Below are positions 13,101-35,412 of a stretch of 64,000 nucleotides of DNA, one piece after another. The position numbers were made by a program, and so were the translations under genes. A model generated the notes under the pieces. That model searched no databases. It saw only the letters and a list, made by a program, of their open reading frames with translations, and had not been told where the DNA came from. The stretch is from Planctomycetota bacterium. GTDB lineage: Bacteria > Planctomycetota > Planctomycetia > Pirellulales > Pirellulaceae. The first letter of the stretch is position 1. Each line of letters opens with the position of its first letter. Location of the stretch: NCBI GenBank assembly GCA_017303505.1, contig JAFLCP010000013.1:2446-66445 (forward strand), given 5' to 3'.

Positions 13101-13452
13101 ACCACTGCAGCGTCTCCTCGTTTTCTGTTTCACGGCCCCAGTGCAAAATGCCGCCTTCGGTCTCCTTCTTCACGCGTTCGACGATTTGACCATTGGGCAT
13201 TTTCTTGCGTTCAATCTTCTTGACGACCTTGCCTGCGATCTTCTCGCACAGCTCACGTCGCCCTTCCGCCGTTCCAGGATCAGGCAGCAGCGTCGCAATC
13301 AGCGCCGCGCGACAAGCGGCCAATGGCCGACGTGCGGGCCAGATGTGAAGTGTCGAGATATGACCATGCCGCACGTTCTTCTCATGCACTGAGTCAAGGG
13401 ACGTTGCTTCCAATGGGAAAGCGTGTTCGATCAATCGCGGGAAATCACTCAT
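10192..13452 (-). CDS. DUF1156-family N6-adenine DNA methyltransferase with internal Zn-ribbon
   Basis: DUF1156 signature IEHAFPLEATSLDSVHEKNVRHGHISTLHIWPARRPLAACRA. SAM motif I VLDPFAGGGAIPLEA, motif IV IITDPPYYD, and Zn-ribbon GGKCPACG. Confidence 0.9.
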   Translation of the reverse strand: MSDFPRLIEHAFPLEATSLDSVHEKNVRHGHISTLHIWPARRPLAACRAALIATLLPDPGTAEGRRELCEKIAGKVVKKIERKKMPNGQIVERVKKETEGGILHWGRETENEETLQWFRDEIRKAYGGRAPKVLDPFAGGGAIPLEAMRLGCETTAVDINPVAWFILKCTLEYPQKLAGQTRPLPEFILRNDEFMTDFFKKAKGYSKTEVRAALAKLHARLKKRKKWNDSSQPQQTFGFVNDGAEDEGELQADLAWHVRAWGQWVLQQTRRDLAKYYPTYADFEPLKKNSVAYEYQPTKLLKLKEDGTPDIEVLNDEFSDDYLAIKGNPRWVVKPTVAFLWARTVACKNCRVVFPLIKTLWLAKSETKRIKLELTIDKATRVVGFNINQNEPAKGGNAAQKREHDKRVGEGTVTKSGGKCPACGVFMTKADIQIEGMNDRIGQTLTAVVVDGGNGKEYRKPTDIDLAASSSIECEVDNIFAKIPFGMLHEPMILDAKGNTWCSLYGINEFHKLYNSRQMAALGRLVLSTREISIEGRKYSYDAEWTEGLVGLLTLAVGRLADFSSRCVTWTSGGEFLGHTFVRWALPFIWDYCEGNPLGETSGNYRGAVEWICRATEHTCNATLQAEPPSVLRGSAINPPGTGLYDVIITDPPYYDAIGYSVLMDFFYTWHRRALHGIIQDGSYDSDQPLAPKWNSETNDGELVDDASRFGGNKKDSKDAYENGMAKAFVACGQALNSNGRLVLVFAHKHPDAWETLVSAVIRAGFVVDGSWPIQTERVARTRSQSAAALSSSVWLVCKKRPTSAKPGWDNKVLEEMRTKIATQLREFWDAGIRGPDFVWAATGPAMEAYSKHPVVRKALVDGEIMTVGEFLTHVRRMVVDYVVGQVLTGAKEKETVAADRLDEVTAYYLLHRYDFRMDEAPIGACILYATACGLTDTELERTWDILVRGGVTSGGDDDVESNPDDDDPDSEPSGSGNKVKLKAWDRRTHRSMGIEAPEGRPVPLIDRIHRVMHLWKSGDVQKVDEFLDEHGLRRNELFKRVVQSLIELSTNGERSLLESISNHIGAKGAIADRGPLLAFEFEEDE

Positions 13453-14167
13453 TATCTTTTTCTTCCTTGGAAGGTGCTTCTTCGTTGGCGTTGGGCTTAG
13501 TGGCAGTTACTGCAGGTGCATTCTGCGTTGGCATTGGAAGCTGAAGAAATTGCACCAGTAGTTCACGGGCATAGTGCTTTCCAAACCGATGCATTCGCAG
13601 AGCCGCGAGCACTGCTCCGAAGCCAAGTAGCCCAATCGCACTCCAGTTCGTAGGCACCTTGAAGATCGCGACAATCGCGACGAACACTAGCGAAACGCAC
13701 AGGCCGCGGTTTAGACCATAGTTGCCATTGAAGATGTCGACCCTGGACGCACGGCTCTGGGCAGCAACGGCGGCGTAGATTTGACGCGTAATTCCATACC
13801 ACTCTTTTCTGCCAATTGCAGAAAGATCTGCGGGTACGCTCAAACCTAATTTTGTTTGTAATTGGCTGATAATCGCTGTGCGCTGCGAGTCATGGATCAG
13901 CTTCAATTTGTTCGAGCGAATCCAGTCGCTCGGCATTCCGTACCAATACCACCAAGCCGTTTCCAGGAAACCTCCGAGGGTTTGCACTAAATGTCCCGCA
14001 GCATATGACAAGATCAAGAACACACCCAAGCTGCCGAGTGACATGTCCTTCAACGGCACCGTCTGCGCTATCAGAGTCTCTGCTTGAGCTAATCCGAAAA
14101 TCAGAATCGCACCGGGCATCACGATTCCAGCAAACTCATAAAAGTCGAAATTTTTGTCTGCCTTCAT
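13445..14167 (-). CDS. four-TM membrane protein of unknown function
   Basis: Two N-terminal and two C-terminal hydrophobic helices flank a ~85-aa soluble segment. ATGA overlap with the upstream MBL gene and an 8-nt overlap with the downstream methyltransferase. Confidence 0.6.
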   Translation of the reverse strand: MKADKNFDFYEFAGIVMPGAILIFGLAQAETLIAQTVPLKDMSLGSLGVFLILSYAAGHLVQTLGGFLETAWWYWYGMPSDWIRSNKLKLIHDSQRTAIISQLQTKLGLSVPADLSAIGRKEWYGITRQIYAAVAAQSRASRVDIFNGNYGLNRGLCVSLVFVAIVAIFKVPTNWSAIGLLGFGAVLAALRMHRFGKHYARELLVQFLQLPMPTQNAPAVTATKPNANEEAPSKEEKDNE

Positions 14168-15150
14168 CGATCGTACTCCGAGTCAATGGTTGGTTGGCTG
14201 TATGCAGGGATGTTTACTACGATGTCCCCTTTCCATCGAGTGGACCAAACGTTGTTGCTATACGCTCGGTACTTGTTAGATGCGTCAGTAGATGGTTTCT
14301 TGCCCACAGAGACGATCGTGTATTCCGGCTTCATCGCGGCGACCGCAGGTTGATAGTAACCTGAGTCACGACCATGGTGACTGGCTTTCAAAATGTCACA
14401 TTTCAAATTGCTGCCATAGTAGTCATGAATGGACTCCCAGACTTCAGCCTCGGCATCGCCGCCAAGTATGATCCGCGTGCCATTTGCCACCAGATAGAGA
14501 ACATAGCTGAGGTTATTGTGATTTTTCGATGTGTTAGCCGCTGTATTGGTCTCTATTGTCGGCGCGAGGATATGAATGCCGTCTCCTCCATCAGTCAAAT
14601 CGGCGTTTTGGTTGAAATATGGTCTATGCATGCCCCGATAGTATCGCAACACCGTCACGTCGCCTGGACTGCGCCATTCGCCGTTGCGCAACCGTTGGTA
14701 GCGTCCCCAGTCGATTCGATCGTTGTCTGTTTTGAAGTCTGGGACTTTGGAGTGCCAAGTATCCCAGACGTTGCGGATCGCGATGCCCTCGCGCCACAAT
14801 GCGTTGAGCCCACGCATGTGGTCAAGGTCCGGATGAGATTGGATGTACCGAAAAATCTCTCGACCAGGAAAGTGCTGCTTAAAGTACTCCACCGGATTGG
14901 TCAGTTGAACGTTGTAACCGGCAGTTTTGAGAACACCTTCAATCAACCGACCTGACAGTTTTATACCGAGGGCCTTTGCGAGCGCGAGCTGTGCGTTATC
15001 GTACGACGACGGGGTCTCATCCGCTATTTCTTGTGCGGATGTGTCGTCGAGGCTGTCTCCGTTGTTGATGTCGATCATCGTAATGCGACCACTATCATGC
15101 TCGATGATGGTGCAGTCACCGTGGCCAACATTTAAGAAGTGAATCTTCAT
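14164..15150 (-). CDS. metallo-beta-lactamase-fold hydrolase (second, divergent ComEC-type MBL paralog)
   Basis: Motifs FLNVGHGDCTIIEH, QSHPDLDHMRG (variant HxDxDH), LGGDAE and KASHHGRDSGY. Alignable by eye with the 5591-6673 product. ATGA overlaps on both sides. Confidence 0.85.
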   Translation of the reverse strand: MKIHFLNVGHGDCTIIEHDSGRITMIDINNGDSLDDTSAQEIADETPSSYDNAQLALAKALGIKLSGRLIEGVLKTAGYNVQLTNPVEYFKQHFPGREIFRYIQSHPDLDHMRGLNALWREGIAIRNVWDTWHSKVPDFKTDNDRIDWGRYQRLRNGEWRSPGDVTVLRYYRGMHRPYFNQNADLTDGGDGIHILAPTIETNTAANTSKNHNNLSYVLYLVANGTRIILGGDAEAEVWESIHDYYGSNLKCDILKASHHGRDSGYYQPAVAAMKPEYTIVSVGKKPSTDASNKYRAYSNNVWSTRWKGDIVVNIPAYSQPTIDSEYDR

Positions 15151-18100
15151 TCCTTCCCTCCTAACCGTTCTGCCCGGAGGACTTCTGCTCTCTTGATCAA
15201 CACACTTCCCTTTGCACTCGCTAGTAGGTTCCCGAATGGATCTTGAACTCGGGCAAGTTTTGGCGAGGGCGTTGCGCAGTCGTACACTACGTAGAGCCAG
15301 TACTGATCACGAAGGTTGGCTGCCCGAGCCCATTCGTTTGACGAGACTTCAACGTCGCCCGTACTTGCGCGACCTTTCACTTCAATGGCTCGTCGACCTC
15401 GTGGATCGGTAGATGGGTAGATCGCTAACAGGTCGAAGCCAGGATTGTCAGTTAAGCCTGCCGCTCGGGCGAGTTCGGGTGTAGACACATCCTTAACCTC
15501 CGCGCCTTGAGCTTCTTCGAAAGCTCTGGCGACATCCATGGCCACGCGTTCGACGTCGGCGTCGTGTCTGGCTAAGTCATCTGGATCGGACGAGGGGACA
15601 ATCAGGGCATGAGCGACGAAGACCACCTTGCCTGGTCTGATCAACTCGGGTTCTCGATGGATTGTATCGATCGCTAATTGTCGTCGTCCGGACAGGGATT
15701 TTTGTTGATTTCGTATATCAGTGAGAGCCTTGAGTGCACCAGGATTTCCAGCTCGCGCTTTCTCGGACAGCCTGTTTCGAGCTGCTGCCAACTCACTCTC
15801 TTGAAAGCTGAATCCACGCCGAATGAATTGCTCGCGCTCTGCTAAAGTAGCAAGCATCTGATTGCGACGCCCCATAGCAATGTCGCGGGAAACGCGTTCT
15901 GTTAGATAGGCCTCAGCCAGCTCACACATCTTGCTCGCTTCTGCGGCCAAACGCTGGGCGGTAGCTGGCAGTCCTTTACTTGGACCAAGAAGCATTAAGT
16001 GCTCAACTGGACATAGTTCAGTGTCAGCGCCTTCGTACTGGCGAATGCCAATCAATCGACACTCCAATCGTTCCGGCGTGGCCAAATCGGGAAAGTCTTT
16101 GTCGGCAGCGCGATCAACGGTCGCCAACGCCACATGGAACAGATAGGGTTTGCTGGCTGTAGGATCGACAAACACAGCGCCGTTTAGCGCATCTTGGCCA
16201 ATCCGCTCGGATACTAAATCGCGAAAAGCCTCAAAGACAGGTTCGCCTGGATGCACCCACACCGCAGCTCCGCGTTCTTGTGGGCGAACGACAGAGAGGC
16301 ATTGTCTTTGTCGAGCGTTATAAAGCTCCAGTGTTGGCAGGATCGGATCAATCGAGCCGGGGTGGAGGGGAATGAAGGAAAAGCACTTCTGCATGTCGCC
16401 TTCCATCCCAATTCCCGCGGGGGGGCCAGCGTTCTCTAGATACTGGCGAACGTATCCTGGCAATAGTCGACGATATGCTTCTTGCATCAAGTCGGCACGC
16501 AGTCTCGGCAGTTGCTTCTTGACGTCTCCGCCATCGCCGTAAAGCATTCGTTCTTGAGCTGCGAGTGCTTGAACCTGTTCAGCGGTTAGCTTGCCAGACA
16601 ACTCACTGATCGCTTGGTCCGCACCATCGACTACCGCTTGCTCCATGTAAGTGCTCAACGATACGCCTTCGAACAATCGCCCGATCGAATCAAAGACTTT
16701 CTCGCTGCCAAGCGAATCGCGAATGATCTCAAGTTTCGCAAGCAATGTTTCGATCACCTTGCCTTCGCGAGTGTCGGGCGAAACCAAGTTAATTATGTGA
16801 ACTGGGTCGTGCTTCTGTCCGTAGCGATGAATTCGGCCCATGCGCTGTTCGAGACGAGCCGGGTTCCAAGGGACATCAAAGTTAATCATGATCCAGCAAA
16901 ACTGGAGGTTGATGCCTTCGGCCGCCGCATCCGTGCAAATCATGAATCGCGCTCCGTCCGCTTGGGTATGATCGCGTCGAAAGCGCTCAACTGCTTCTTG
17001 CCTGGCCTTGTAGTCCATTCCGCCATGGATTTGCGCAATACGACCTGTATGGCCCAATCCGCCTAAGCGGCCAACTAGATAGTCGAGCGTATCTCGATGC
17101 TCGGTGAAGACGATTAGCTTTTCGCCAGCGAACCTAGGGCTATTCAGGATCTCTTGGAGTTTTTCGAACTTCGATTCGCTACCATCCGCTTGAACGCGGC
17201 GGGCTAGTTGGAGCAGCACCGCAACCTGTTCTCGTTCAACGTATAGATCCGTCAGCGATGTCGCGATCACGCCTGAAAGGAGCTTTCCTTCGGCCACTTC
17301 GCTTTCTTCACGGTCACCAATCGCCCGTTCTTCATCAGCGGTTTTGGTGTCAAAGACGTCTTCTTGATCCGAAGCCAGGCGACGCTGCAAAAGATTGATC
17401 TCTTCGCCAGTCAAATTATTGTCCTGGACTCGCTGGATCAACTCGTCTAGCTTTTCAATGCGTCGCTCGAATGATCGGGTTAGTGCGTATGTCGAGCTTG
17501 CAAGGCGACGCTGCATAACGCTCATTGCCAATCGAGCCGCCGATCGATTGAGCAACTTGGCACGATTGTAAACGTGCCTCATGTAATCGGTCGTTTCGTT
17601 GTACAGGACCTGTTCACTGAAAGGTCCTTGGCTGAGGCGGAATCCAAGCGTGTCGGAAATGCGCTTGGGATAGAGCGGCTCTCCCGACAATAGCACCATC
17701 TCCTCCTTGGTGCGTCGGATGAAGTGGGACTGGCGACGCTCGACAGGATAGTTTTCGAACGCCTCGGGCGTTGAGAGCACATCCGGCTCGAGTAACCGCC
17801 AAAGACCGTAGTAAGGATAAGGCTTGCCTTGGTGCGGCGTCGCGGTTAGCAACAGCAAGTGGTGCGGAGACCAATTCAGCTGCCAAGCTGGATCAAGTCC
17901 TCGGACGCCAGCGAGTGATTCAGCTAACTCATATCGGCCCGTCTTTCGGACGCGTAGGTCGCTACTCCGATTAACGGAGAGCTTGTGTGCTTCATCGAAG
18001 ACAACCAGGTCGTATGGTTCTACATCAGGTTCCTGCAATCGAGCGAACATTTTAGGGCCAGCAAGCGTGTCTACGCTTACGACGATTCGATCACTGCCTG

Positions 18101-18719
18101 GGCCAATGAAGGGATTCCCGGCCCGCGTGTCCGATCCTGTGACGACGTTGAAAGGCAGATTGAACAAAGACTGCATTTCGCTTTGCCAGTTACCAATCAG
18201 TCCGGCGGGTGGCACGATCAGCACGCGACGAATCAAGCGTCGGGACAACATCTCGCGAATATACAAGCCCGTCATGATGGTCTTGCCAGCACCGGCGTCG
18301 TCAGCAAGCAGGAACCGCAACCTAGGGTGCTTTAAGAGGTAGTCATAGACAGCAATTCGTTGGTGTGGCAACGGGTCAATACTGGACGTTTCCGTCGCAA
18401 AAGCGGGGTTCGACAGGTGGCCAAAAGACAACCGTTCCCCCTCAACCACGGCGCGGACAATTTCAGGATTCGCCGTGAATTCGACTTTGCCAGCATTGGA
18501 AACCAGGTGTCCACCAAACGTTGTTTCGTGGTCCTCTCCCACAAGCTTCTGAAGTTGTTCCCAGGCAAGCTGCGAAGGCTTAGCATGCCCATTCTCCCAC
18601 CGGCTTACGGTTGGGAAAGACACGTTAAGTCGTTTGGCAAACTCGGTTTGCGTCAATCCTATTCGCGCACGAATCCGCCGAATTTCAGCTGGCAAGTCTT
18701 CAATTTCTGCTAGATCCAC
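15147..18719 (-). CDS. HTH(XRE)-SNF2 helicase-DUF3883 fusion protein
   Basis: GTG start with GGAG 9 nt upstream. N-terminal HTH IGLTQTEFAKRLNVSFPTVSRWENGHAKPS. Helicase motifs LLADDAGAGKT, VVFDEAHKL and QRMGRIHRYGQK. C-terminal DUF3883-like GFDLLAIYP...RRAIEVKGRASTGDVEVSSNEWARAANLRDQYWLYVVY. Confidence 0.9.
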   Translation of the reverse strand: MDLAEIEDLPAEIRRIRARIGLTQTEFAKRLNVSFPTVSRWENGHAKPSQLAWEQLQKLVGEDHETTFGGHLVSNAGKVEFTANPEIVRAVVEGERLSFGHLSNPAFATETSSIDPLPHQRIAVYDYLLKHPRLRFLLADDAGAGKTIMTGLYIREMLSRRLIRRVLIVPPAGLIGNWQSEMQSLFNLPFNVVTGSDTRAGNPFIGPGSDRIVVSVDTLAGPKMFARLQEPDVEPYDLVVFDEAHKLSVNRSSDLRVRKTGRYELAESLAGVRGLDPAWQLNWSPHHLLLLTATPHQGKPYPYYGLWRLLEPDVLSTPEAFENYPVERRQSHFIRRTKEEMVLLSGEPLYPKRISDTLGFRLSQGPFSEQVLYNETTDYMRHVYNRAKLLNRSAARLAMSVMQRRLASSTYALTRSFERRIEKLDELIQRVQDNNLTGEEINLLQRRLASDQEDVFDTKTADEERAIGDREESEVAEGKLLSGVIATSLTDLYVEREQVAVLLQLARRVQADGSESKFEKLQEILNSPRFAGEKLIVFTEHRDTLDYLVGRLGGLGHTGRIAQIHGGMDYKARQEAVERFRRDHTQADGARFMICTDAAAEGINLQFCWIMINFDVPWNPARLEQRMGRIHRYGQKHDPVHIINLVSPDTREGKVIETLLAKLEIIRDSLGSEKVFDSIGRLFEGVSLSTYMEQAVVDGADQAISELSGKLTAEQVQALAAQERMLYGDGGDVKKQLPRLRADLMQEAYRRLLPGYVRQYLENAGPPAGIGMEGDMQKCFSFIPLHPGSIDPILPTLELYNARQRQCLSVVRPQERGAAVWVHPGEPVFEAFRDLVSERIGQDALNGAVFVDPTASKPYLFHVALATVDRAADKDFPDLATPERLECRLIGIRQYEGADTELCPVEHLMLLGPSKGLPATAQRLAAEASKMCELAEAYLTERVSRDIAMGRRNQMLATLAEREQFIRRGFSFQESELAAARNRLSEKARAGNPGALKALTDIRNQQKSLSGRRQLAIDTIHREPELIRPGKVVFVAHALIVPSSDPDDLARHDADVERVAMDVARAFEEAQGAEVKDVSTPELARAAGLTDNPGFDLLAIYPSTDPRGRRAIEVKGRASTGDVEVSSNEWARAANLRDQYWLYVVYDCATPSPKLARVQDPFGNLLASAKGSVLIKRAEVLRAERLGGKE

Positions 18720-21979: not shown

Positions 21980-23053
21980 TTATGAAGCCACAATGATATC
22001 TAAACTTCGAAGCAATCGCACTAGTCCTTCAATAGTGATATACGGAGCACATGTGCCTTCATACGATGCAGCTACAGTTTCCCAGTTATCGCACAGTCGA
22101 CGCCGTACCTTATCAGCTACTTCTATGGAGTCACACTCCAGTGCGATTACACAATCAGATAGAGCCAACTTCCTTCGACCCAGATAAATTGCACACTTTG
22201 CTGTTTTCTGGGACCCCACTCGCGTAATCAAAACCGACGGTGAGGAGACCAAACGACTTCCCAAATCAACGTAACGATCGCAACAAGTAATCTTTTGCCC
22301 TACTATCTCAGTACTATGCACGAAAGGGAATTTCGTTCCAGCTAAGCCATTTAACGCCCGGTGCACTGGAATACAACCGCGAATCAAACGAACCGTGAGC
22401 GTTCTGCTTCCAATTTTTGGGGAAATCGTCATATTAGGAGGGGTGATGGCGGTGCTATTGTCACTCTTTTTGAAGCGAACAACGACAGTCGAGGCAGAGC
22501 ATCCCATGAATGTCGACTTAGAGAATCGCTTGATTACAGTCATGCTAGCCATGCTCATAATGAGGTCTCTGCATCTAGCGTCTTTACTACTAGAAAGACA
22601 GGACGGCGGAAGAATTGCAATGAGCTCACCACCCATCTTTAGATAGTCGAATGCAGTAAGCACAAACGCAAACGCCCGACTGCATCTTATCCTTCCCGCA
22701 CGCGACTCTGCAATACACGCAGCACTTCCTCTTCCGCTAAATGGAGGATTCAATAAGACAATATCACATGCGTTGAGCAGCGATTTAAGTATTTTTGATG
22801 CCTTGCGCGAGCGTTCGTCAAGGAAGTCGCAGCAAGAGACCGAGTGGATAGATTTCAGCTTGCGAAGAGTACGCGCGCACAAAGGATCGATGTCGTTCGC
22901 GAAGATCTGGCAAGAGGGCCAACGGTCGATAGCAGCCGCGAGCAAATCGCCATGGCCTGCCGCAAAATCTGCGACAATTTGAACCTTTCTGATCTTTGCC
23001 GCCCGCACAGCGGCGAATGCGAGGTTCTTTGGCGTGAAGAACTGATCTTTCAT
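21980..23053 (-). CDS. N6-adenine DNA methyltransferase (gamma-class, Eco57I/N6_Mtase-like)
   Basis: Motif I VADFAAGHGDLL and motif IV VLLNPPFSG. ATGA overlap with the upstream gene. Last gene of the six-gene operon. Confidence 0.8.
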   Translation of the reverse strand: MKDQFFTPKNLAFAAVRAAKIRKVQIVADFAAGHGDLLAAAIDRWPSCQIFANDIDPLCARTLRKLKSIHSVSCCDFLDERSRKASKILKSLLNACDIVLLNPPFSGRGSAACIAESRAGRIRCSRAFAFVLTAFDYLKMGGELIAILPPSCLSSSKDARCRDLIMSMASMTVIKRFSKSTFMGCSASTVVVRFKKSDNSTAITPPNMTISPKIGSRTLTVRLIRGCIPVHRALNGLAGTKFPFVHSTEIVGQKITCCDRYVDLGSRLVSSPSVLITRVGSQKTAKCAIYLGRRKLALSDCVIALECDSIEVADKVRRRLCDNWETVAASYEGTCAPYITIEGLVRLLRSLDIIVAS

Positions 23054-23982
23054 TGATTCAGTAGCCCAGTCACTTCATAAATATGCAACCGACCAAGGCC
23101 CTCTGTGCGTTTAGCTTTTCTGACGGGATGGTCGTAGACAATTTCAACTCGATCGGGGTTTCTCAGGGCGCACACAATGGCCGCAAGCGCTTGCGGCTTT
23201 GTTCCTATGTGGGCAACAGTAACCGTACTGGATGCGTGTCTACATAAAAGCCATTCCAAAATGCTTAACGTTGCGAAAGGACAATTGGCAGGAGCCAAAA
23301 GCACCTTCTTCCACGCCTGACTCTCTCTCAAAGCGGTTCGATTTGCCCAGTAGGTTTCAAACGGATACTCAAGCCTGAACCCAGGGACGCCGATTACCGG
23401 GAAAACGAATTGCCCCGGTGGTTCCAGCTGATTTAACAGGTAGAGCAGTCTCGCGCCTTCAAATCCAAGAAGTGGAGCGAAAACACTAACGCCACTGGAT
23501 CGTCGAAAACGAGCGAACCCTGGAAGTGGCTTGATACCTTCAATCTTGTCGCTCAGGTCGTAAATCTCATTCTGAGTGGGACGTGGGCTCATCCGGTAGT
23601 CTAAAGGTTCAACATAAACTACCCGCAGTCTTCTCTCGGGCCTTCCAGTGTAGCCCCGAAGAAGTGAAGCCCATGTCCCGTGCTTAAGGCCAGTAATGTC
23701 TAAATACACTATTCCACTAGGAACCGAATTCCAGAACTCTTTCAGCTTCGCATTACTTCGCAACGGAATTTCACAAGAAATCGCGCCGCCGACTTCAATC
23801 CGTTCGGACTCCTCTCGCAATACATCAATGATGCTAACGTCGCCTCGCGAACTTTGCCAAGACTTACTATGATGACTTCGATCTTCAACAGAGCGCCCAG
23901 ACAAATAAACACTTCCAGCCTCCGCCTGGAAGTCAAATGCATTCTCGAACGCACACGAAAGTGGGAAAGGCTCAATCTTCAT
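23050..23982 (-). CDS. hypothetical protein (operon B component, unknown fold)
   Basis: 310-aa ORF, overlapping the ATPase gene by 11 nt and the MTase gene by 4 nt. No motif recognised. Confidence 0.6.
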   Translation of the reverse strand: MKIEPFPLSCAFENAFDFQAEAGSVYLSGRSVEDRSHHSKSWQSSRGDVSIIDVLREESERIEVGGAISCEIPLRSNAKLKEFWNSVPSGIVYLDITGLKHGTWASLLRGYTGRPERRLRVVYVEPLDYRMSPRPTQNEIYDLSDKIEGIKPLPGFARFRRSSGVSVFAPLLGFEGARLLYLLNQLEPPGQFVFPVIGVPGFRLEYPFETYWANRTALRESQAWKKVLLAPANCPFATLSILEWLLCRHASSTVTVAHIGTKPQALAAIVCALRNPDRVEIVYDHPVRKAKRTEGLGRLHIYEVTGLLNQ

Positions 23983-25849
23983 AACCGTAGAACCTCGAAA
24001 ACAGCGTCAGTTGTTGCGGCAGCTGTGTAATGGTTTCTCGTTTGTGTTGCTTCAGATGGTACCTAATTGATTCCTTGGGGTTCTCAATCAGAGTCGCAAG
24101 CTCCTCGGCGGAAATATCCATCTTGCGTTTCCGACGAGGACTAAATTCAAACATCGCGGCAAAAATTGGATGTATAGCGTAGTCAAAATCTAGTGTCTCT
24201 GACGGACCTCCTAACTTCGTCCCAGGAAACCGGACTACAGCTAAGTGCATCACCGCGTGTCGAAGCAATTCGTCCACCTGAGGAGTAACAGTCGTAAGTC
24301 GAAATTGATTGACCTCGGGAGCGTGTCCAAAAGGGTCAATTGCCATTTGCTGGAAAATTCTGCCAACAGCAAGCAACATTTTCGTCAACTTAGCTCCATT
24401 AACAGAAAGCCCCTCAAGTTCCGAAAGGTTGACCGCGCCAACGCGCTGGGCAGTGATAGTCTGCGTTTCAGGCGGCACAGGGCTAGAAAGATCGCCACCA
24501 TCGCGTAAGTGCGCAATGAAGCTTTGGTCAACAAGCTCAAGCATGTAGCGAATATTGCCGCATGCAAGTAGGGCATAAGTATCGAGTCCACAGTAGAATT
24601 TATCGATCCCCCGTTTTCTTTTTCGAATCGAAAACAATGTCGCATACTTGTGATTATCGAAACGCTCTTTGAACTTTTTCGGCTGTTCTCGCACAAATCG
24701 TAATTCATCGGATAGCGTAGAATCGTGGCTCTTCGCCCAAGCGTGAACAAAGTACTTCTGTAACGGCGTCAACCCAAGAAACGCATCGATATCTTCCCTC
24801 GCAAGCTCCTGGAGATTCTCGCTTTCAATCCGCTTTGTATGTTCGAGTACTCCAAGTGCAATTGCTTCATCTTCGTTTGAAATACCGGGTAGTGCCTTCT
24901 CAAGCTCCGTTGATATCGTTTCTCCGTTAATTCGCACTTGTGCAAGTCGCGTTTCACAGACATCTTTTGCAAATTTGACAAACACGTCGCCAGTCATTCG
25001 ATCACTGATTCGTATCAAAGCATAATCGGCGGGAGCAATCAGTTGCTCCGATGCCTGCAGTGTCGTTTTACAGGTCCAGCCAAGCTCTTTGACGCCAATC
25101 TTGAAGAAGTACTGTCCATTGGAGTGCTTAATGTATGTGTTCGCGACCTTCTGCTGATACGGCAATAGATTCTCGTATTCATCAAGCAAAAAGAAAAAGT
25201 GTCTGCCCTTAAAGCAGCCACTGGAGAGAGTCGCCTCACACAACAGCTCGACTGGGCGTTGCTGAAGGGACAATCGGAGGCTTTGTTCGTCAACTATGTT
25301 GTTTACTTGCGACTCAAAATCGAGTCGTGATTCGATCAATGCCTGATGCAAAAGATCAAAGCGATCAATCTCACCAAGATGTAGTGATTTGCTAACCCGC
25401 CTCACAAGATGAGGAGAGGCATCCGATACCGGAGCAACGGACAATTCATACCATGATACGTACTCAAGTATCAGTTCGCATAGAAGCAAATTGAAGTAGT
25501 GCGCAAAAGGACGAATCCATTCTTCGTCTTTAACGCCGGCACCCGAGAATGCCGCAACGTGGTTTGTGTTAACGCGATGATAAAGCCCGATAAAGTCAGA
25601 CGTTCTAGAAATGGGTTCCCCCATTTTTTTTGCGAGCGCTGATTGACCTGCGTAAGACAGCCCCCTTAAAGCTGTAGTTTTTCCCGTACCTCGGCCTCCA
25701 ACCAAGACACAGGACTGCTTAGTGGTAAGTTCTGGGAAGTAACGAGGCTCCGTGAAGAGATCGAACACTTTTTCCTGAAGCCACTCTGCTCGGTAACTTC
25801 CAAACAATTCGCTTAACTGTTTCTGAACTTCGTCAAAGGAATCTTTCAT
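23972..25849 (-). CDS. P-loop ATPase (ORC/Cdc6-like AAA-type)
   Basis: Walker A VLVGGRGTGKTTALRGL and Walker B HFFFLLDEYENL. 625 aa. ATGA overlap with the upstream PRTase-like gene. Confidence 0.75.
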   Translation of the reverse strand: MKDSFDEVQKQLSELFGSYRAEWLQEKVFDLFTEPRYFPELTTKQSCVLVGGRGTGKTTALRGLSYAGQSALAKKMGEPISRTSDFIGLYHRVNTNHVAAFSGAGVKDEEWIRPFAHYFNLLLCELILEYVSWYELSVAPVSDASPHLVRRVSKSLHLGEIDRFDLLHQALIESRLDFESQVNNIVDEQSLRLSLQQRPVELLCEATLSSGCFKGRHFFFLLDEYENLLPYQQKVANTYIKHSNGQYFFKIGVKELGWTCKTTLQASEQLIAPADYALIRISDRMTGDVFVKFAKDVCETRLAQVRINGETISTELEKALPGISNEDEAIALGVLEHTKRIESENLQELAREDIDAFLGLTPLQKYFVHAWAKSHDSTLSDELRFVREQPKKFKERFDNHKYATLFSIRKRKRGIDKFYCGLDTYALLACGNIRYMLELVDQSFIAHLRDGGDLSSPVPPETQTITAQRVGAVNLSELEGLSVNGAKLTKMLLAVGRIFQQMAIDPFGHAPEVNQFRLTTVTPQVDELLRHAVMHLAVVRFPGTKLGGPSETLDFDYAIHPIFAAMFEFSPRRKRKMDISAEELATLIENPKESIRYHLKQHKRETITQLPQQLTLFSRFYGYED

Positions 25850-26739
25850 GATCGTTTCTTCAGTGGAACCCAGTTTCTCGACTCATGCCAGAATAACGGA
25901 ATCGTAGCGTCCGGGATGCAATGCTCAAACGCAATTGTCAGGCCCAAGTCATTGAACCCTCGCCAGTCTCTTCCAATCCCAGCTCGCTTGCTCGCTTTGC
26001 GAATATCGGACTCAATTTTTTGAACGTACTCGGCAGGCCAAAACCTACATGCTTCGGAAAAGACTGAGTAGGACTCATCTATGTCGTGAGCTGCAAGCAC
26101 ATTCACCCTCGGTGCTCTACGTTTTATTGCTGCATTTCCCTTCCAAGTGCAAATCACCGGACAATAGAACGTAGCGACATCTACCTGTGCGTTCTCAGTC
26201 ACTGTAGAAAACGACTCGTGACGTGCGGGATTTCCAAAGCCGTGGGTGCGATCCCAGGTTTCGCAAAATTGTTTCCCTGATCCAACGAAGTCGTCAACAA
26301 ATATGACCGCGCGAGAGTCCCCAAAAGAAAGCCTTTCAATTGCCTCCTCATTAGTTACGATTTGAGTGGGTTCAACACCGACAATCTGCCGTGACATTCG
26401 CGAGAAGTGATATCCGCTATCCGAAGGGTTAGGGTCTTCGCCCGTTACATGTGTTACCAAGACATTTTTTGTAAATTCATCCCATTGGGCCTGAGCTGAC
26501 GGCATGGAAAAATCGCATACCTGTGATACAAGCTTGCTTATGGCGTATCGAAACAACTGCTGCGTCAATTCATTGGAGTAGTAGATGAAGTGCGAAAGTA
26601 GTAGTACGGCCGTTTCCATCTCGTCTTCTTCGAAATTCTGCAGCCACCCTTGAAAGTCCAGGGTGCGATGAGTCGGCCAAAGCTGAGCTTCAACGAAGAA
26701 GTCGCACTTTGCAAGAAGCATTTCTTTGTCAATCGACAT
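25846..26739 (-). CDS. phosphoribosyltransferase (PRTase)-like protein
   Basis: PRPP-loop-like motif RAVIFVDDFVGSGKQF (four hydrophobic residues + DD + hydrophobic-x-SG). The N-terminal ~140 aa are helical and of unknown function. Confidence 0.6.
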   Translation of the reverse strand: MSIDKEMLLAKCDFFVEAQLWPTHRTLDFQGWLQNFEEDEMETAVLLLSHFIYYSNELTQQLFRYAISKLVSQVCDFSMPSAQAQWDEFTKNVLVTHVTGEDPNPSDSGYHFSRMSRQIVGVEPTQIVTNEEAIERLSFGDSRAVIFVDDFVGSGKQFCETWDRTHGFGNPARHESFSTVTENAQVDVATFYCPVICTWKGNAAIKRRAPRVNVLAAHDIDESYSVFSEACRFWPAEYVQKIESDIRKASKRAGIGRDWRGFNDLGLTIAFEHCIPDATIPLFWHESRNWVPLKKRS

Positions 26740-26765
26740 TACTACACCTATTCCACCGAAATTCT

Positions 26766-27293
26766 TCAGCTTAGTTTGGGCTTGTAAACGGTTGGCTTTT
26801 CTGCATTCATGTATCTTCCAGCATATGGAGGAACATTTTTTGTACTCGTTCTCAAGATGAAAAGCTGTGCCACCGGGGCTAGTCGCGGTATTCGCACTTT
26901 CAGGTGCCCTAGATTAAGTAGCTCAAAAGTGACTCGGCCACAGAATCCCGAGTCGATTTGACCATCATTGCATGTAGCCGAAACGAACAGTCGAGCTAGG
27001 GAGCCTTTTGTTTGAACCAGGCCAAAGTAGCCAATGGGCATTTGGATAACTTCCTCAGAGCAGCCTAGTAGACCAACATTGCGCTTCAACTCGATCCCCT
27101 CCTCAGGAATGTCGAATTCGTTTATCCAGCTTTGCTTCAATGGTTTGCCGTAGTCTACGACAGCTTCTGTATTGATCGATGTGACCCTGATGTTGAGCCT
27201 AAGGGTTAAGGAGGTGATGTCGTAAGAATCGAGATTGCTTACGACCGCATGCTGTATGCACAAATCTCGCAGGTTGTCACCAACTATCAACAT
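26766..27293 (-). CDS. dCTP deaminase (Dcd)-like protein, catalytic residues apparently retained
   Basis: KGSLARLF aligns with E. coli Dcd RSSLARLG, and GQIDSGFCGRVTFELLNLG aligns with RIDPGWSGCIVLEFYN (Glu retained). The ATG at 27293 with a GAGGA RBS is preferred over the track's TTG start at 27332. Confidence 0.75.
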   Translation of the reverse strand: MLIVGDNLRDLCIQHAVVSNLDSYDITSLTLRLNIRVTSINTEAVVDYGKPLKQSWINEFDIPEEGIELKRNVGLLGCSEEVIQMPIGYFGLVQTKGSLARLFVSATCNDGQIDSGFCGRVTFELLNLGHLKVRIPRLAPVAQLFILRTSTKNVPPYAGRYMNAEKPTVYKPKLS

Positions 27294-27312
27294 TGAAAAT
27301 GTCCTCGCATAA

Positions 27313-27927
27313 TTATCTCCCCCATAGCCCAAGCAACCGGGTGACTACCGTAAGCCCGGCAAGAAATGTACCTATTATCCATTGCCAATACGCACTCCAA
27401 AATGCACGAATTGCCTGCCCGATTGTTGGGCGCGGTGGCTTCACCGGCTCGCGAGCTGACGTTCGTGACACGTCGTGCATGTGCGAGTCCATCTGAAAAA
27501 AGCTGCAGGAGCAGATCAGCATCCCCGGCTTTATCTGAATCGGACGATTGCTTCCGTTTAAAATTCCTACACGAAGATTATCTTGAAAGCCGGGGTCGAT
27601 CTTCCCGTGAGAAACAAAGACACCGTGGTAGATTAGGCTGCCTTTTCCTGAAACGATCCCAAAGATATTGTGCGGGACGCACACACGTTCGCTGGTATAC
27701 ACAACAATCGATCGCCGCGGCCGAAGTGTTATGCCTTCGGCAGGAATTCCTCGCTGGATGCTAGTCTCGGATTCGAAGATCCTGTCCCCTACAGACAAAT
27801 CAACTGAAACCGGATCGCAGGTCTCCGGCAAAGGGGAAATGAATATGCGGCTATCGTCAGAGCGAAGCGACTTACGAAAGTCTTCTTCGCTTGATGTTAG
27901 TCGCCTCTTTAAGAGGATCGCGCTCAT
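27313..27927 (-). CDS. dCTP deaminase/dUTPase-fold protein with C-terminal TM anchor, deaminase Glu/Arg not conserved
   Basis: VDLSVGDRIF, GIVSGKGSLIYHG and GKIDPGFQDNLRVGILNGS show the Dcd/dUTPase beta-barrel signature but lack the LE(F/L)xN Glu. The C-terminal segment AFWSAYWQWIIGTFLAGLTVVTRLLGLWG is hydrophobic. Confidence 0.7.
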   Translation of the reverse strand: MSAILLKRRLTSSEEDFRKSLRSDDSRIFISPLPETCDPVSVDLSVGDRIFESETSIQRGIPAEGITLRPRRSIVVYTSERVCVPHNIFGIVSGKGSLIYHGVFVSHGKIDPGFQDNLRVGILNGSNRPIQIKPGMLICSCSFFQMDSHMHDVSRTSAREPVKPPRPTIGQAIRAFWSAYWQWIIGTFLAGLTVVTRLLGLWGR

Positions 27928-28141
27928 TGCTTTGCCCTCATTTCTAGGTATTCAGCCTGCCACTCGGCACCTTCAAAAGGGGCAGATGAGCTGTTCGCAG
28001 CCTCGTTATCACGGATACTTGATTCAGCTCGACGCTAAGCAGACAACCACTATCGCAGATGTTATACTCTCCCCACAGCTGGGCGTCAGCCCTGGGGACG
28101 AGTTCGGACTAAAACCGCCCAGTTTTTTAGGAGACTGGATA

Positions 28142-28369
28142 ATGACCAAGACTAAAGACGATTTCGGCGTCCGTGTTAAGGAACTGCGTGAACAGCTGCA
28201 CCTCACCCAAGAAGCGATGGCAGAGACCTTGGGCGTAAGCTTCGCGACTGTGAATCGATGGGAAAACGGATGGACAGCCCCCTCAAAACTAGCCCAGCGT
28301 CAGATCGACTTTTTGTGCAAAGAGCACCACATAGCGGCAATTACAGATAACAAGGTCTACGCCAGATAA
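28142..28369 (+). CDS. XRE-family HTH transcriptional regulator (75 aa)
   Basis: TAGGAG RBS before the ATG at 28142. HTH VKELREQLHLTQEAMAETLGVSFATVNRWENGWTAPS. Divergent from operon B. The long track ORF starting at 27668 is antisense to the Dcd-like gene and is rejected. Confidence 0.8.
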   Translation: MTKTKDDFGVRVKELREQLHLTQEAMAETLGVSFATVNRWENGWTAPSKLAQRQIDFLCKEHHIAAITDNKVYAR

Positions 28370-28759: not shown

Positions 28760-28817
28760 TCGTCGTCGCCTAGCAAGAGTGAGTACGCAGAGACACCACA
28801 AACCAAGGGAGGTGCTT

Positions 28818-29300
28818 ATGGACTCGGTAACAGCAGCCGAGATTGCCAAGCTGGACACAATGACTGTTTCCAAACTGGTCGAGAAATTCGAATTGCTCGT
28901 CAGCGAGAAATGCTGGAGCAGAAACAAACGATACCTCGTTCGGCGAATCGCCTGGCGACTTCAGGCCAACGCCGAAGGTGGCCTATCGGAACGGGCGTTG
29001 AAGCGTGCGGCCGAGTTGACACTCGACTCAGAGGTCCGAGTCACACCTCCACGCGAACACAAACGGTCGCGGGTTGTCGTGGCGACCGTTGAATCGAAAC
29101 CAGTTCGTGACCTTCGCTTGCCGCCCAACGGCACGATGCTTCATCGCGATTACAAGAGCCGGCCGATCCGAGTACTTGTCCTGGAAGATGGATTTGAATA
29201 CGAGGGGCAGCACTTCAATTCACTCACCGCGGTCGCCAACACGATCACGGGCTCCCACGTCAACGGATTTCAGTTCTTTCGATTGAGGAGTACCCAATGA
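28818..29300 (+). CDS. DUF2924-domain protein (typical partner of large serine recombinases)
   Basis: AAGGGAGG RBS before the ATG at 28818. Blocks RRIAWRLQANAEGGLSERALKRAAEL and LPPNGTMLHRDYKSRPIRVLVLEDGFEYEGQHFNSLTAVANTITGSHVNGFQFFRL match the DUF2924 pattern. Confidence 0.8.
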   Translation: MDSVTAAEIAKLDTMTVSKLVEKFELLVSEKCWSRNKRYLVRRIAWRLQANAEGGLSERALKRAAELTLDSEVRVTPPREHKRSRVVVATVESKPVRDLRLPPNGTMLHRDYKSRPIRVLVLEDGFEYEGQHFNSLTAVANTITGSHVNGFQFFRLRSTQ

Positions 29301-32926: not shown

Positions 32927-35032
32927 CTACTTCGCCGATTCGGATTCGACGCGTAGTTCTTGTTCTACGATTCTGGGAGTCAAGGCAACAATGATTGTCG
33001 TTTCTGCGTCGGCACCTGGGGCATTGTCGAACACTCGTGGAATTGCCACGACAATCGATTCACCCGCCGCAAGCTTTGCCGATGAACTCACCTCATACTG
33101 TTCGATTGCGGGCACTTGTACCGTAAGTTGCGGCGCCACTTCGGTCGCAGACTTGATCGGTAAGTTTGCATAAGAGACCTTACCAACACTGGATACTTTA
33201 ACCTCGAAGTCCAAAGTGATGCTGTCGTCTTCGCTACTTTTCGGCGTGAGGACAAAGGTCAACCCTTCGTTCGCAATAGACACTATCGGCTGTATCCTGC
33301 CATCGGCTTTCGGATTAACCCCGGTCACAAATGGACGCTTCACTTCATCCGCGATCACTCCCATTTGACCATCGAAAAGTACTACCCTAGGTGCAAACAT
33401 AATATTTCCTCGAGGGTCCGACGATACAGTCTTAACTAGTTGGTTTAACTTAGGTTGGTCAATGCGTGCGGCAATCGCTGGTCCTATCCCTTTGATGGTC
33501 AGCCCATCAATTCTGCTTCCTATCCAGTCGATTGAGCTGGCCGTCAGCGTATCGGTTTGAATGAATCTAGCTTCAATCATAATTTGCTTAGGTTCGCCGT
33601 TCTTCCAAATCTCTAGTCTCTGCCCCAGTAAGAGGTGCTGGCGTGGAGTCAGTTCTGCCGAAAGCGACATGCCTTCCAAATGCAACTTCGCTTTTAGTGA
33701 CGAAGGCAAGCCCAGCCAAGACACCAACTTTTCTACGCCTGAATTTTGGCTTCCTGATATGGATTCCGGCATCGTTTCGAAAATGGAAGCGACATGATAG
33801 CGCTCAACGAATGCTGGACCGTCAGTTTCTTGCACACTCCATGCTTCATTCCACATCGGCTCCACATGCTGCTCGACGGAATCGCCAGCCACAAGGTGCA
33901 TTGCAGGCATCTTTTGCCCCGAAGCATCTCGTGCGTCTGTCAGGCCCGCGCCAGCGATTACTGTTACAACTGCCGCAGACAAGATTTTGGCGGTCAGACT
34001 AGTGGGTTTTCGATCTTGTACCAACAACTCGATTCGGCGTTTGAGGTCCTTACCAGAGGCAATAGAAATGAGGCCAAGCGTTGGACCATTCTTCCGCTTG
34101 TCGCGGACTTCAGCAAATCCTAGCAAGAGCTCTCCATAGGCCACAGTGTCACCTGGCGATACGTTCTGCAATGCCAACCGATCAGCGGCTGCTTCCATGG
34201 CAGTTCGTAGGCGTTTTTCGATCAACCAAACAACAGGGTTGAACCAATGGAGTGCACCAGCAATCGAAGCGATGATCGCAACGTGAATATCGTATCGTCT
34301 AACATGCGCCAACTCGTGTCGAATAACCCACCGCAGTTCTCGTTCGCTTAATCTCTCGATAAGGCCTGGCGGAAAACAAATCGTGTGTCGAAATAGACCA
34401 AACACAGCAGGTGCTTCGAGCGAAGCCACTTCACGTACCACAGGCCGACGCCCAACCGCTAGAGAATCGCATTCGCGAAGCAACAGATCGATGAGCTTCT
34501 GGTCATCGAGCACCGGGCAAGAGCGGAGCTTTAGCGCAAAGCGAATATGCGATACGACACTACGAATAAGCAGCGCTGTCGACACGAATATCACAACGCA
34601 TAGAGAGGCGAACAAAATCGCTTCCCAAGCATCGCTAAATGAGATAAAAGGTTGAGCCTGAGCCTGAATGGGAACCCATTGTGTCTCAGCAGCATCGGTA
34701 CTTGGTAAAACTCCATAGGAATTGCTGTACGAGTGCTCGCGAACTTCTCCGTTCCGCCGTTGGTTGACCGCCCCATCAGACTCGCTTAAAAGCCAACTGT
34801 CGATGGGCTTATGGAAGCTGAGCGGGCTACCAAGCGAAACAGGAATGAGCAGCCTGATAACAACAATCGTCAGTAGCATGGCATGTAGTGAAGGACTTAA
34901 CTTTCGGCGAAACGCCAATGTGATCGCTGTCACCAAAATCAAAATGGGTAGTGCTCTCCAGGTCGCCAGCGTAAGTAACCAAAACCAAGTTGTCGCCAAC
35001 TCAAACAATCGATCCATCCAATCAAAATTCAT
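32927..35032 (-). CDS. BlaR1/MecR1-like M56 metallopeptidase sensor fused to a C-terminal secretin-like domain
   Basis: Four N-terminal TM segments, Zn motif RHELAHVRRYD, and a C-terminal IEARFIQTD...PRVVLFDGQMGVIAD...GLTFVLTP pattern resembling GspD/PilQ secretin domains. ATGA overlap with blaI-like gene. Confidence 0.8.
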   Translation of the reverse strand: MNFDWMDRLFELATTWFWLLTLATWRALPILILVTAITLAFRRKLSPSLHAMLLTIVVIRLLIPVSLGSPLSFHKPIDSWLLSESDGAVNQRRNGEVREHSYSNSYGVLPSTDAAETQWVPIQAQAQPFISFSDAWEAILFASLCVVIFVSTALLIRSVVSHIRFALKLRSCPVLDDQKLIDLLLRECDSLAVGRRPVVREVASLEAPAVFGLFRHTICFPPGLIERLSERELRWVIRHELAHVRRYDIHVAIIASIAGALHWFNPVVWLIEKRLRTAMEAAADRLALQNVSPGDTVAYGELLLGFAEVRDKRKNGPTLGLISIASGKDLKRRIELLVQDRKPTSLTAKILSAAVVTVIAGAGLTDARDASGQKMPAMHLVAGDSVEQHVEPMWNEAWSVQETDGPAFVERYHVASIFETMPESISGSQNSGVEKLVSWLGLPSSLKAKLHLEGMSLSAELTPRQHLLLGQRLEIWKNGEPKQIMIEARFIQTDTLTASSIDWIGSRIDGLTIKGIGPAIAARIDQPKLNQLVKTVSSDPRGNIMFAPRVVLFDGQMGVIADEVKRPFVTGVNPKADGRIQPIVSIANEGLTFVLTPKSSEDDSITLDFEVKVSSVGKVSYANLPIKSATEVAPQLTVQVPAIEQYEVSSSAKLAAGESIVVAIPRVFDNAPGADAETTIIVALTPRIVEQELRVESESAK

Positions 35033-35412
35033 CCCTGATCTCCTTCGTTTCGGTTCGCCTTCTTGTTCAGTAGTGCTCGAATCTCTTCCACATCCTTTGC
35101 GGTCAACTTGGCCGTTTTCACAAAGTGGATTAGGGCCGGTGTCGCATCACCTCCGAAGACGCGTTCGATGAATGAGCGACTCGCTTCGCGTACGCAAGCT
35201 TCCCTGCGAACCGCTGGTGTGTACAGATATTTCTTCCCATTCTGCTCCGTTGCCAGTGCTCCTTTTCGAACCAGTCGATGTAGCATTGTCTTAACGGTGG
35301 CCGGGCTCCAACCATTGACTGCTGCGATCTGATCGACTACTTCCGCCGCCTCAATCGGCGAGGAACTCCAGATCAAGTTCATGACAATCCATTCAGCGTC
35401 CGAGATTTGCAT
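35029..35412 (-). CDS. BlaI/MecI/CopY-family winged-helix transcriptional repressor
   Basis: MQISDAEWIVMNLIWSSSPIEAAEVVDQIAAVNGWSPATVKTMLHRLVRKGAL is a typical BlaI N-terminal wHTH. Confidence 0.9.
   Translation of the reverse strand: MQISDAEWIVMNLIWSSSPIEAAEVVDQIAAVNGWSPATVKTMLHRLVRKGALATEQNGKKYLYTPAVRREACVREASRSFIERVFGGDATPALIHFVKTAKLTAKDVEEIRALLNKKANRNEGDQG

Follow-up and report, generated by a model that had tools for sequence, protein, structure and literature searches.

A tandem pair of Dcd-fold paralogs, a predicted dCTP deaminase and a putative membrane-anchored partner, beside a PRTase-CE cassette of a Planctomycetota bacterium

Why would a bacterium encode, directly upstream of a Dcd-fold enzyme with its deaminase residues in place, a second copy of the fold that lacks them and ends in a hydrophobic tail? 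The question is raised by two open reading frames (ORFs) on the minus strand at positions 26766-27927 of a 64,000-nucleotide stretch of contig JAFLCP010000013.1 from a Planctomycetota bacterium (the whole stretch is called the window here), which we named DcdA (upstream) and DcdB (downstream). By sequence comparison the two genes are an old, co-diverging module, and in the window they occupy the place where related gene cassettes often carry a dUTPase. The reading that we favour, at about even chances, is that the pair is a module of a mobile cassette acting on the pyrimidine deoxynucleotide pool, in which DcdB would be the catalyst and DcdA a non-deaminating membrane partner, with a mixed trimer as the preferred arrangement.

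Catalytic residues and folds of the two paralogs

The original prediction of tandem Dcd-fold paralogs held at this locus, as both ORFs are present and both match the Pfam family DCD PF22769 (E 1.3e-16 for DcdA and 5.6e-13 for DcdB). The trimeric dUTPase family PF00692 is barely passed by DcdA (23.8 against a cut-off of 22 bits), DcdB stays under that cut-off, and neither protein reaches the NCBIfam equivalog cut-off for dCTP deaminase or that for dUTPase (DcdA scores 25.9 against 102.55 for the dUTPase model TIGR00576). The start that had been listed for the second ORF, TTG 27332, was revised: ATG 27293, which is Met14 of that longer ORF and lies 8 nt downstream of a GAGGA ribosome-binding site, fits better, and similarity of the longer ORF to the Dcd family begins only at Met14. 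Because DcdB begins at this ATG, the two genes do not overlap and are spaced by 19 nt. BLASTP aligned the two proteins at 31% identity over 74 residues and hhalign at 21% identity over 134 profile columns (probability 98%), and on these comparisons DcdA and DcdB are distant paralogs. Residues were counted by column in a MAFFT alignment of E. coli Dcd, whose reference sequence is identical to PDB 1xs1_A, with 80 DcdA-type and 120 DcdB-type protein clusters.

DcdB reads QTKGSLARLF and RVTFELLN at the catalytic positions of Dcd. The Arg115 column holds Arg and the Glu138 column holds Glu in 120/120 DcdB-type clusters (Arg101 and Glu124 in the window copy), as had been claimed for this copy; the accompanying claim for Ser111 did not survive, since that column holds Gly and the Ser visible in the motif aligns with Ser112. 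The window copy also has Lys96, Asp114, Asn127, a motif-4 Gln143 and a lid Tyr157-x-Gly-Arg-Tyr161. Among the DcdB-type clusters the motif-4 position is Gln in 90/120 and Asn in 21/120, motif 3 reads Q-I/V-D/E, and the C-terminal lid Y-x-G-R/K-Y is found in 116-118 of the 120. The AlphaFold2 model has a mean predicted local distance difference test (pLDDT) score of 96, and its best Foldseek matches are the B. halodurans enzyme 4xjc (template modelling (TM) score 0.86-0.89) and then the M. tuberculosis Dcd:Dut. Judged by its residues and modelled fold, DcdB is probably a dCTP deaminase that is bifunctional with dUTPase activity. It resembles the known bifunctional dCTP deaminase:dUTPases (B. 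halodurans 4XJC, M. tuberculosis 2QXX/2QLP, M. jannaschii 1OGH) in fold, at the TM scores given above, and in length, and shares with them the Arg, the Glu, the motif-3 Asp, the motif-4 Gln and the C-terminal Tyr lid. However, its identity to them is only 22-24%, it has K-G-S for their R/K-S-S, it lies below the TIGR02274 cut-off, and unlike them it invariably has a putatively membrane-anchored paralog as its partner, often in defence neighbourhoods.

In DcdA the catalytic positions read GKGSLIYHG and LRVGILNGS. The loss of Arg and Glu that had been read from this copy was confirmed by proper alignment: the Arg115 equivalent is gone through a two-residue 'AR' deletion after Leu98, and the Glu138 column holds Gly in 55, Cys in 22 and Glu in 0 of the 80 relatives (Gly121 in the window copy), with Glu again in 0/144 when DcdA representatives clustered at 50% identity were counted by hmmalign. 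The list of losses was nevertheless incomplete, as the motif-4 Gln and the lid have gone too. The motif-4 column of DcdA-type proteins holds T/S/Y or S and never Gln (Cys-Ser-Cys 139-141 in the window copy), the lid Y-x-G-R/K-Y is absent, and motif 2 has K-G-x where dUTPases have R-S; both DcdA and DcdB have K-G-S at the R-S-S of Dcd, with Gly in the Ser111 column of each. The signature G-K-I-D-P-G-F of motif 3, also noticed earlier, is kept, with Lys in 80/80 and Asp in 77/80. The window copy retains Lys109, Asp111, Phe114 and Asn124, and among the 144 best DcdA representatives Lys109 is found in 140/144 and Asn124 in 136/144. The loss is thus asymmetric, with pocket motif 3 kept and motif 2, motif 4 and the lid gone. 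Of the trimeric dUTPase features, DcdA has the motif-3 Asp and lacks motifs 2, 4 and 5 (the Gly-rich C-terminal arm). By residue criteria DcdA is neither Dcd nor Dut, and on the same columns it cannot deaminate.

The description of DcdA as deaminase-dead is right for the deaminase residues, but 'dead' may be too strong, because the Glu-less archaeal dUTPases that it matches are active enzymes. Its closest PDB sequence matches by phmmer are the archaeal Dcd-like dUTPases 8y1w and 9ln0, ahead of true Dcd enzymes, and Foldseek ranked 8y1w, 9ln3 and 9ln0 first and then 4xjc. The AlphaFold2 model (mean pLDDT 86) consists of a barrel to about residue 146, a low-confidence linker and a long helix at residues 169-203. 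Like the archaeal Dcd-like dUTPases (P. furiosus P45 9LN0/9LN3, T. pacificus 8Y1W), DcdA has no deaminase Glu and keeps the motif-3 pocket; the archaeal enzymes are soluble, have L-M-L at the Glu position and keep R-S-S-L-A-R and the motif-4 Gln, whereas DcdA has lost both elements and has gained the linker and a predicted C-terminal membrane helix. Its nonsynonymous to synonymous rate ratio (dN/dS) against the close relative L002 is 0.063 (0.028 for DcdB), and DcdA is therefore maintained under strong purifying selection and is not decaying. A natural chimera was also seen, P0004 (166 aa, on three short Logan contigs), in which DcdA 1-147 is fused in frame to the DcdB lid (...YAGRYMNADKPTIFVPKLS); it looks like a deletion between the paralogs that removed the predicted membrane tail and nearly all of DcdB.

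The hydrophobic C-terminal helix of ~30 residues that had been proposed for the upstream copy corresponds to the AlphaFold2 helix 169-203, and its conservation was borne out as well. A tail with a mean Kyte-Doolittle hydrophobicity of at least 1.6, always C-terminal, is present in 62/72 full-length DcdA relatives versus 3/120 DcdB relatives, the DcdA family median being 2.3, and a mean of 1.6 is reached in 72/85 and in 35/38 more distant DcdA representatives. Because just 3 residues trail the hydrophobic core of the window copy, the helix looks like a tail anchor; most DcdA relatives have 0-11 residues after the segment. The sequence and the model fit a provisional reading of DcdA as a tail-anchored protein with its barrel in the cytoplasm. 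Further out, the proteins P0301-P0344 (ranks above 100, E 1e-23 to 1e-29) are distant Dcd-fold proteins of which 35/38 have a hydrophobic C-terminal helix, some with 25-35 extra low-complexity residues beyond it, and they suggest that membrane-anchored Dcd-fold proteins without the Glu form a wider superfamily.

The pair across bacteria and its place in the cassette

In 15/15 intact loci that were examined, belonging to Planctomycetota, Bacteroidota, Bacillota and unclassified metagenomes, the two genes were adjacent and in the order A then B. Intact pair loci are the window, its close relatives L001-L005, L006, Fibrella L007, the gut-metagenome loci L009-L011, the loci L013-L018 (Planctomycetaceae, Paraprevotella, Muribaculaceae, Segatella, Neobacillus and Oscillospiraceae) and L027-L033, which include Paenibacillus woosongensis. 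In L009, L014 and L016 stop and start codons overlap. Moreover, pairwise identities of DcdA and of DcdB correlate across the 15 loci (Mantel r 0.90, p 5e-4). These comparisons support the view that DcdA and DcdB function as a unit, and on the sequences the A-then-B pair is an old, co-diverging two-gene module found in at least four phyla. The family was delimited by searching 1.84 billion representatives exhaustively with a profile, which gave 97 clusters at 50% identity with E <= 1e-30. GenBank phages held no close relative, only remote archaeal-virus Dcd/dUTPases without the tail, and plasmids held ordinary dcd genes only. Two candidate loci from the genome scan, L019 and L020, were dropped as ordinary housekeeping Dcd genes. 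A decayed pair was seen in an Opitutales metagenome-assembled genome of the Verrucomicrobiota (CAXXNP010000002, L012:5700-7400), with DcdA frameshifted near its N-terminus and DcdB truncated after ~50 residues.

About half of the pair neighbourhoods hold defence genes. Defence-type genes adjoin the pair in L006, L009, L013, L027, L030 and L032, and comprise McrBC, GmrSD, CTD6/MC2, a type I restriction-modification system with a Macro-domain protein, patatin, DUF4062, and S8-AAA and ThiF genes. Seven pair lineages, and most of the stand-alone pairs, add a third gene of ~200 aa that is homologous to T. maritima TM1382 (PDB 3e57, E 4e-25), a protein reportedly described as a putative Nudix protein. 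The third gene itself, at first taken for Nudix by its motif, gave no Pfam or NCBIfam match.

The genomic context, which the original prediction had not given, is a defence-type cassette that the pair opens. A PRTase-CE gene of the phosphoribosyltransferase-like type follows DcdB on the same strand after a gap of 26 nt, and behind it come an ORC/CDC6-like ATPase, a protein of the PADLOC family 'CARF6' and an N6-adenine-type DNA methyltransferase (Table 1). PRTase-CE and the ATPase score 174.5 and 455.7 bits against Pfam cut-offs of 27, and DD..GSG..Q is invariant among PRTase-CE relatives. The PRTase-CE and ATPase genes share 4 nt, and the last three gene junctions of the cassette overlap by 4-11 nt. 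All six cassette genes have a dN/dS of 0.03-0.09. Window positions 22011-28332 (6.3 kb, with a helix-turn-helix (HTH) gene inside) are colinear with L001 and L002 at 77-78% DNA identity and the flanks are unrelated; therefore the cassette moves as a unit.

Relatives of this cassette are abundant, with at least 387 confirmed PRTase-CE relatives among the 600 pattern matches listed from one metagenome scan. The four-gene core of PRTase-CE, ATPase, 'CARF6' and methylase occurs without a Dcd gene in Moraxella, Paraburkholderia, Burkholderia and Diaphorobacter plasmids, and metagenome loci show this gene order too. The PRTase-CE cassette loci are L021 and L034-L113. In the 85 related loci that were classified, the ATPase follows PRTase-CE in 77, 'CARF6' is the conserved third gene, and an N6-methylase is present in 46/85, many of them truncated. 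An all-alpha dUTPase_2 gene (PF08761) is found in 16/85 loci, where with one exception it lies immediately upstream on the same strand; a trimeric Dut of the canonical kind, complete in its five motifs, is found in 10/85, where it immediately precedes PRTase-CE or immediately follows the core; and a TM1382-like gene lies downstream of the methylase in 5/85. When only loci with enough flank on both sides were considered, a dUTPase slot gene was present in 18/35 by script and in 20/35 after correction, the correction adding L075 and L100, which had been mis-scored through overlapping ORF calls. No accessory gene other than the dUTPase types recurs beside the PRTase-CE cassettes surveyed. By homology and position the DcdA-DcdB pair fills this dUTPase slot in the window lineage. 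That three unrelated folds replace one another in the slot speaks for selection of a dUTP-type pyrophosphatase activity within the cassette; and because the pair sits in a slot often given to a dUTPase, removal of dCTP and dUTP is probably an integral accessory of the PRTase effector.

A proposed mixed trimer and its alternatives

We propose that DcdB would convert dCTP to dUTP or dUMP, as its residues and fold suggest, and that DcdA would be held at the inner membrane face by its C-terminal tail anchor and serve as the non-deaminating membrane partner of DcdB. In a mixed trimer, the motif-2 and motif-4 elements of DcdB would complete the Glu-less, P45-like pocket of DcdA, a protein that on its own has neither phosphate-binding elements nor a lid. 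Such a trimer would anchor the enzyme to the membrane and adjust its activity, and no more than one deaminase site could be complete in an A1B2 trimer. The module would remove dCTP and dUTP alongside a PRTase effector that consumes phosphoribosyl pyrophosphate (PRPP) under control of the ATPase, and the outcome may be either protection of host DNA from uracil or deeper starvation of the phage. In trimeric dUTPase-fold enzymes, each site is formed by motif 3 of one subunit together with motifs 1, 2 and 4 of its neighbour. Because the pocket of DcdA is selectively retained and sites in this fold are shared between subunits, mixed trimers would best explain that retention, and a DcdA-DcdB mixed trimer is plausible.

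Several observations weigh against this reading and must be set beside it. The tail of the window DcdA is only moderately hydrophobic, with an Arg within it. Gly fills the Ser111 column of 120/120 DcdB-type clusters, the next column (Ser112) being Ser or Thr, and DcdB fails the NCBIfam dCTP_deam model TIGR02274 with 65.1 bits against a cut-off of 92.8. The pairs of L007, L015 and L017 sit among housekeeping genes, at least 11 lineages have the pair but no PRTase-CE, and pair and PRTase cassette were found together only in the window and in relatives that are 77-78% identical in DNA. In addition, no family of PADLOC-DB 2.0.0 matches either DcdA or DcdB at E <= 1.

The strongest rival holds that the Dcd pair and the PRTase-CE/ORC-like/CARF6/methylase genes are independent systems and chance neighbours in a defence island, a view that would fit either model of the pair and that we regard as possible but rather unlikely. 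Defence systems commonly cluster, and the pair and the four-gene core each occur without the other. However, this has to be reconciled with a same-strand gap of 26 nt, with a block that is colinear from HTH to methylase at ~77% DNA identity between differing flanks, with a slot in which no fewer than half of the assessable cassettes carry a dUTPase of a different fold, and with the TM1382-like partner of stand-alone pairs, which is found in that slot as well. The boldest form of our own reading, somewhat more doubtful than this rival, has membrane-tethered mixed trimers of paralogs that degenerated in complementary ways: the DcdA pocket completed by motifs 2 and 4 of DcdB would be a dUTPase-only site, the DcdB-DcdB interface the deaminase and the third type dead. 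The pair would then be a switchable, widespread and as yet unnamed anti-phage module of the nucleotide pool, and removal of dUTP and dCTP a required accessory of the PRTase-CE/ORC-like cassette.

Two separate homotrimers could instead form a two-step pathway, in which DcdB would deaminate dCTP and DcdA would be an active membrane dUTPase or deoxynucleoside triphosphate pyrophosphatase of the archaeal P45 type. The best PDB matches of DcdA in sequence and fold are indeed Glu-less archaeal dUTPases (8y1w with dUMP, 9ln0/9ln3), its motif-3 Asp, Lys109 and Asn124 are near-invariant, and true dUTPases occupy the same slot in related cassettes. Yet the archaeal dUTPases retain R-S-S...R and the motif-4 Gln, DcdA is without both and without a lid, and DcdB already has a residue set of the bifunctional type; we judge the two-homotrimer pathway unlikely. 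Less likely again, DcdA might be a membrane effector or sensor, in which a nucleotide in the pocket (the product of DcdB, or dCTP) would make the three tail helices disturb the membrane, with abortive infection as the result. Such a role would suit a pocket that is conserved without catalytic residues and a single putative C-terminal membrane helix that is kept even in distant relatives, some of them with C-terminal extensions, and the staphylococcal phage signalling dUTPases among the fold matches of DcdA (3zf3, 5cco) are a precedent for non-catalytic roles; but a single tail anchor with 0-11 residues after it is a weak candidate for a pore. Least probable of all is that the pair serves ordinary pyrimidine metabolism, supplying dUMP for the synthesis of dTTP, with no role in phage conflict: Dcd and Dcd:Dut are housekeeping enzymes and some stand-alone pairs lie among housekeeping genes, but the family is uncommon and patchily distributed (97 clusters among 1.84 billion representatives), both proteins are under the NCBIfam equivalog cut-offs, and the pair lies on a mobile block, is frequently beside defence genes and has decayed in L012.

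The mixed-trimer module that we favour has partial counterparts among known systems. The PRTase-CE of the window resembles the retron type III-A PRTase effectors, such as that of Retron-Eco11, by its PADLOC PRTase_III-A match. The Retron-Eco11 effector depletes PRPP and causes abortive infection (PMC12746101). Unlike Retron-Eco11, the present cassette has no reverse transcriptase or non-coding RNA, and the partners are the ORC-like ATPase, 'CARF6', the methylase and the dUTPase-slot gene. Nucleotide depletion is an established anti-phage strategy. The defensive dCTP deaminases (AvcD) share the proposed outcome, removal of dCTP from the pool during infection, but their fold is reportedly that of zinc-dependent cytidine deaminases, unrelated to the Dcd fold and joined to a kinase/P-loop domain; to our knowledge the known defensive dCTP deaminases use such an unrelated fold. 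Cooperation of paralogous copies with complementary motifs has precedents in two-domain Dcd (Pfam DCD_N + DCD_C; structure 2R9Q, among the fold matches of DcdA) and in the monomeric Epstein-Barr virus dUTPase, each made of two diverged copies of the fold. These are single polypeptides, whereas here two genes would complement each other and one product would be membrane-anchored. A 'dUTPase' example of DefensePredictor was set aside as a different system, with MazG-C and aGPT-Pplase. We found no description of the DcdA-DcdB pair or of the PRTase-CE cassette in the literature covered, which did not include key comparative-genomics papers, so that a prior description is possible.

If the proposal is true, the pair would be a depletion module of the Dcd/dUTPase fold, made of an active subunit and a conserved membrane-anchored pseudo-enzyme, and would allow complementary loss of motifs between paralogs to be tested in an enzyme with its active sites at subunit interfaces. 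It would also give a lead on the abundant, uncharacterised PRTase-CE cassette, of which 'CARF6' is an uncharacterised conserved core component, and the repeated recruitment of three dUTPase folds points to uracil or dUTP handling in the working of this cassette.

Features of the locus and its surroundings

The coordinates of the features are collected in Table 1.

Table 1. Features of the pair and the cassette. Positions are those of the window unless preceded by a locus name.
Feature	Position	Strand	Evidence
DcdA, 204-aa Dcd/dUTPase-fold protein	27313..27927	(-)	Pfam DCD, column counts, AlphaFold2, Foldseek, dN/dS
C-terminal helix of DcdA, residues 169-203	27319..27423	(-)	AlphaFold2; Kyte-Doolittle
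Hydrophobic core of the DcdA helix, residues 183-201	27325-27381	(-)	Best 19-residue Kyte-Doolittle window, mean 1.7
DcdB, 175-aa soluble Dcd-fold enzyme (predicted)	26766..27293	(-)	Pfam DCD, start site, column counts, AlphaFold2, Foldseek
PRTase-CE, phosphoribosyltransferase-like, PRPP-loop motif VIFVDDFVGSGKQ	25846..26739	(-)	PF24390 4.8e-51; PADLOC PRTase_III-A 4.7e-25
ORC/CDC6-like P-loop ATPase, 625 aa, Walker A GGRGTGKT	23972..25849	(-)	PF24389 3.5e-136
PADLOC 'CARF6' family protein, 310 aa	23050..23982	(-)	PDLC01913 1.9e-102
N6-adenine-type DNA methyltransferase, last cassette gene	21980..23053	(-)	PF02384 3.5e-10; PADLOC MTase_II 1.7e-18
Xre-type HTH regulator, 75 aa, divergent from DcdA	28142..28369	(+)	PF01381 2e-11
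TM1382-like third gene of other pair loci	L007:8546-9160, L009:8532-9149, L014:7171-7773, L016:7167-7784, L017:7155-7754		Homology to PDB 3e57

The HTH gene is separated from DcdA by an intergenic region of 214 bp, and a 75-aa HTH gene is found at the same place in L001-L005. The 'CARF6' protein had no Pfam, NCBIfam or PDB sequence match, and PDB sequence searches with PRTase-CE, 'CARF6' and the ATPase returned nothing useful. A scan for promoters and terminators was uninformative, as the promoter count equalled the shuffled expectation and the terminator-like matches lay inside genes.

A second defence-type system, HmaA/DrmD-like, lies ~3 kb from the cassette on the minus strand (window 13445-18719). 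It includes a SNF2 helicase of 1190 aa that carries an HTH at its N-terminus and a NOV_C domain (PADLOC HmaA 2.5e-150), and upstream of the helicase are a PDC-M48B/LmuA-like gene of 328 aa and a 240-aa gene with a weak Csx27 match. At the other edge of the cassette, a DUF2924 gene (2.4e-37; window 28779-29300, plus strand) adjoins the HTH gene, and further on a return to host-type genes is marked on the minus strand at 32927-35412 by BlaI and by a BlaR1-M56 protein that matches a secretin domain more weakly.

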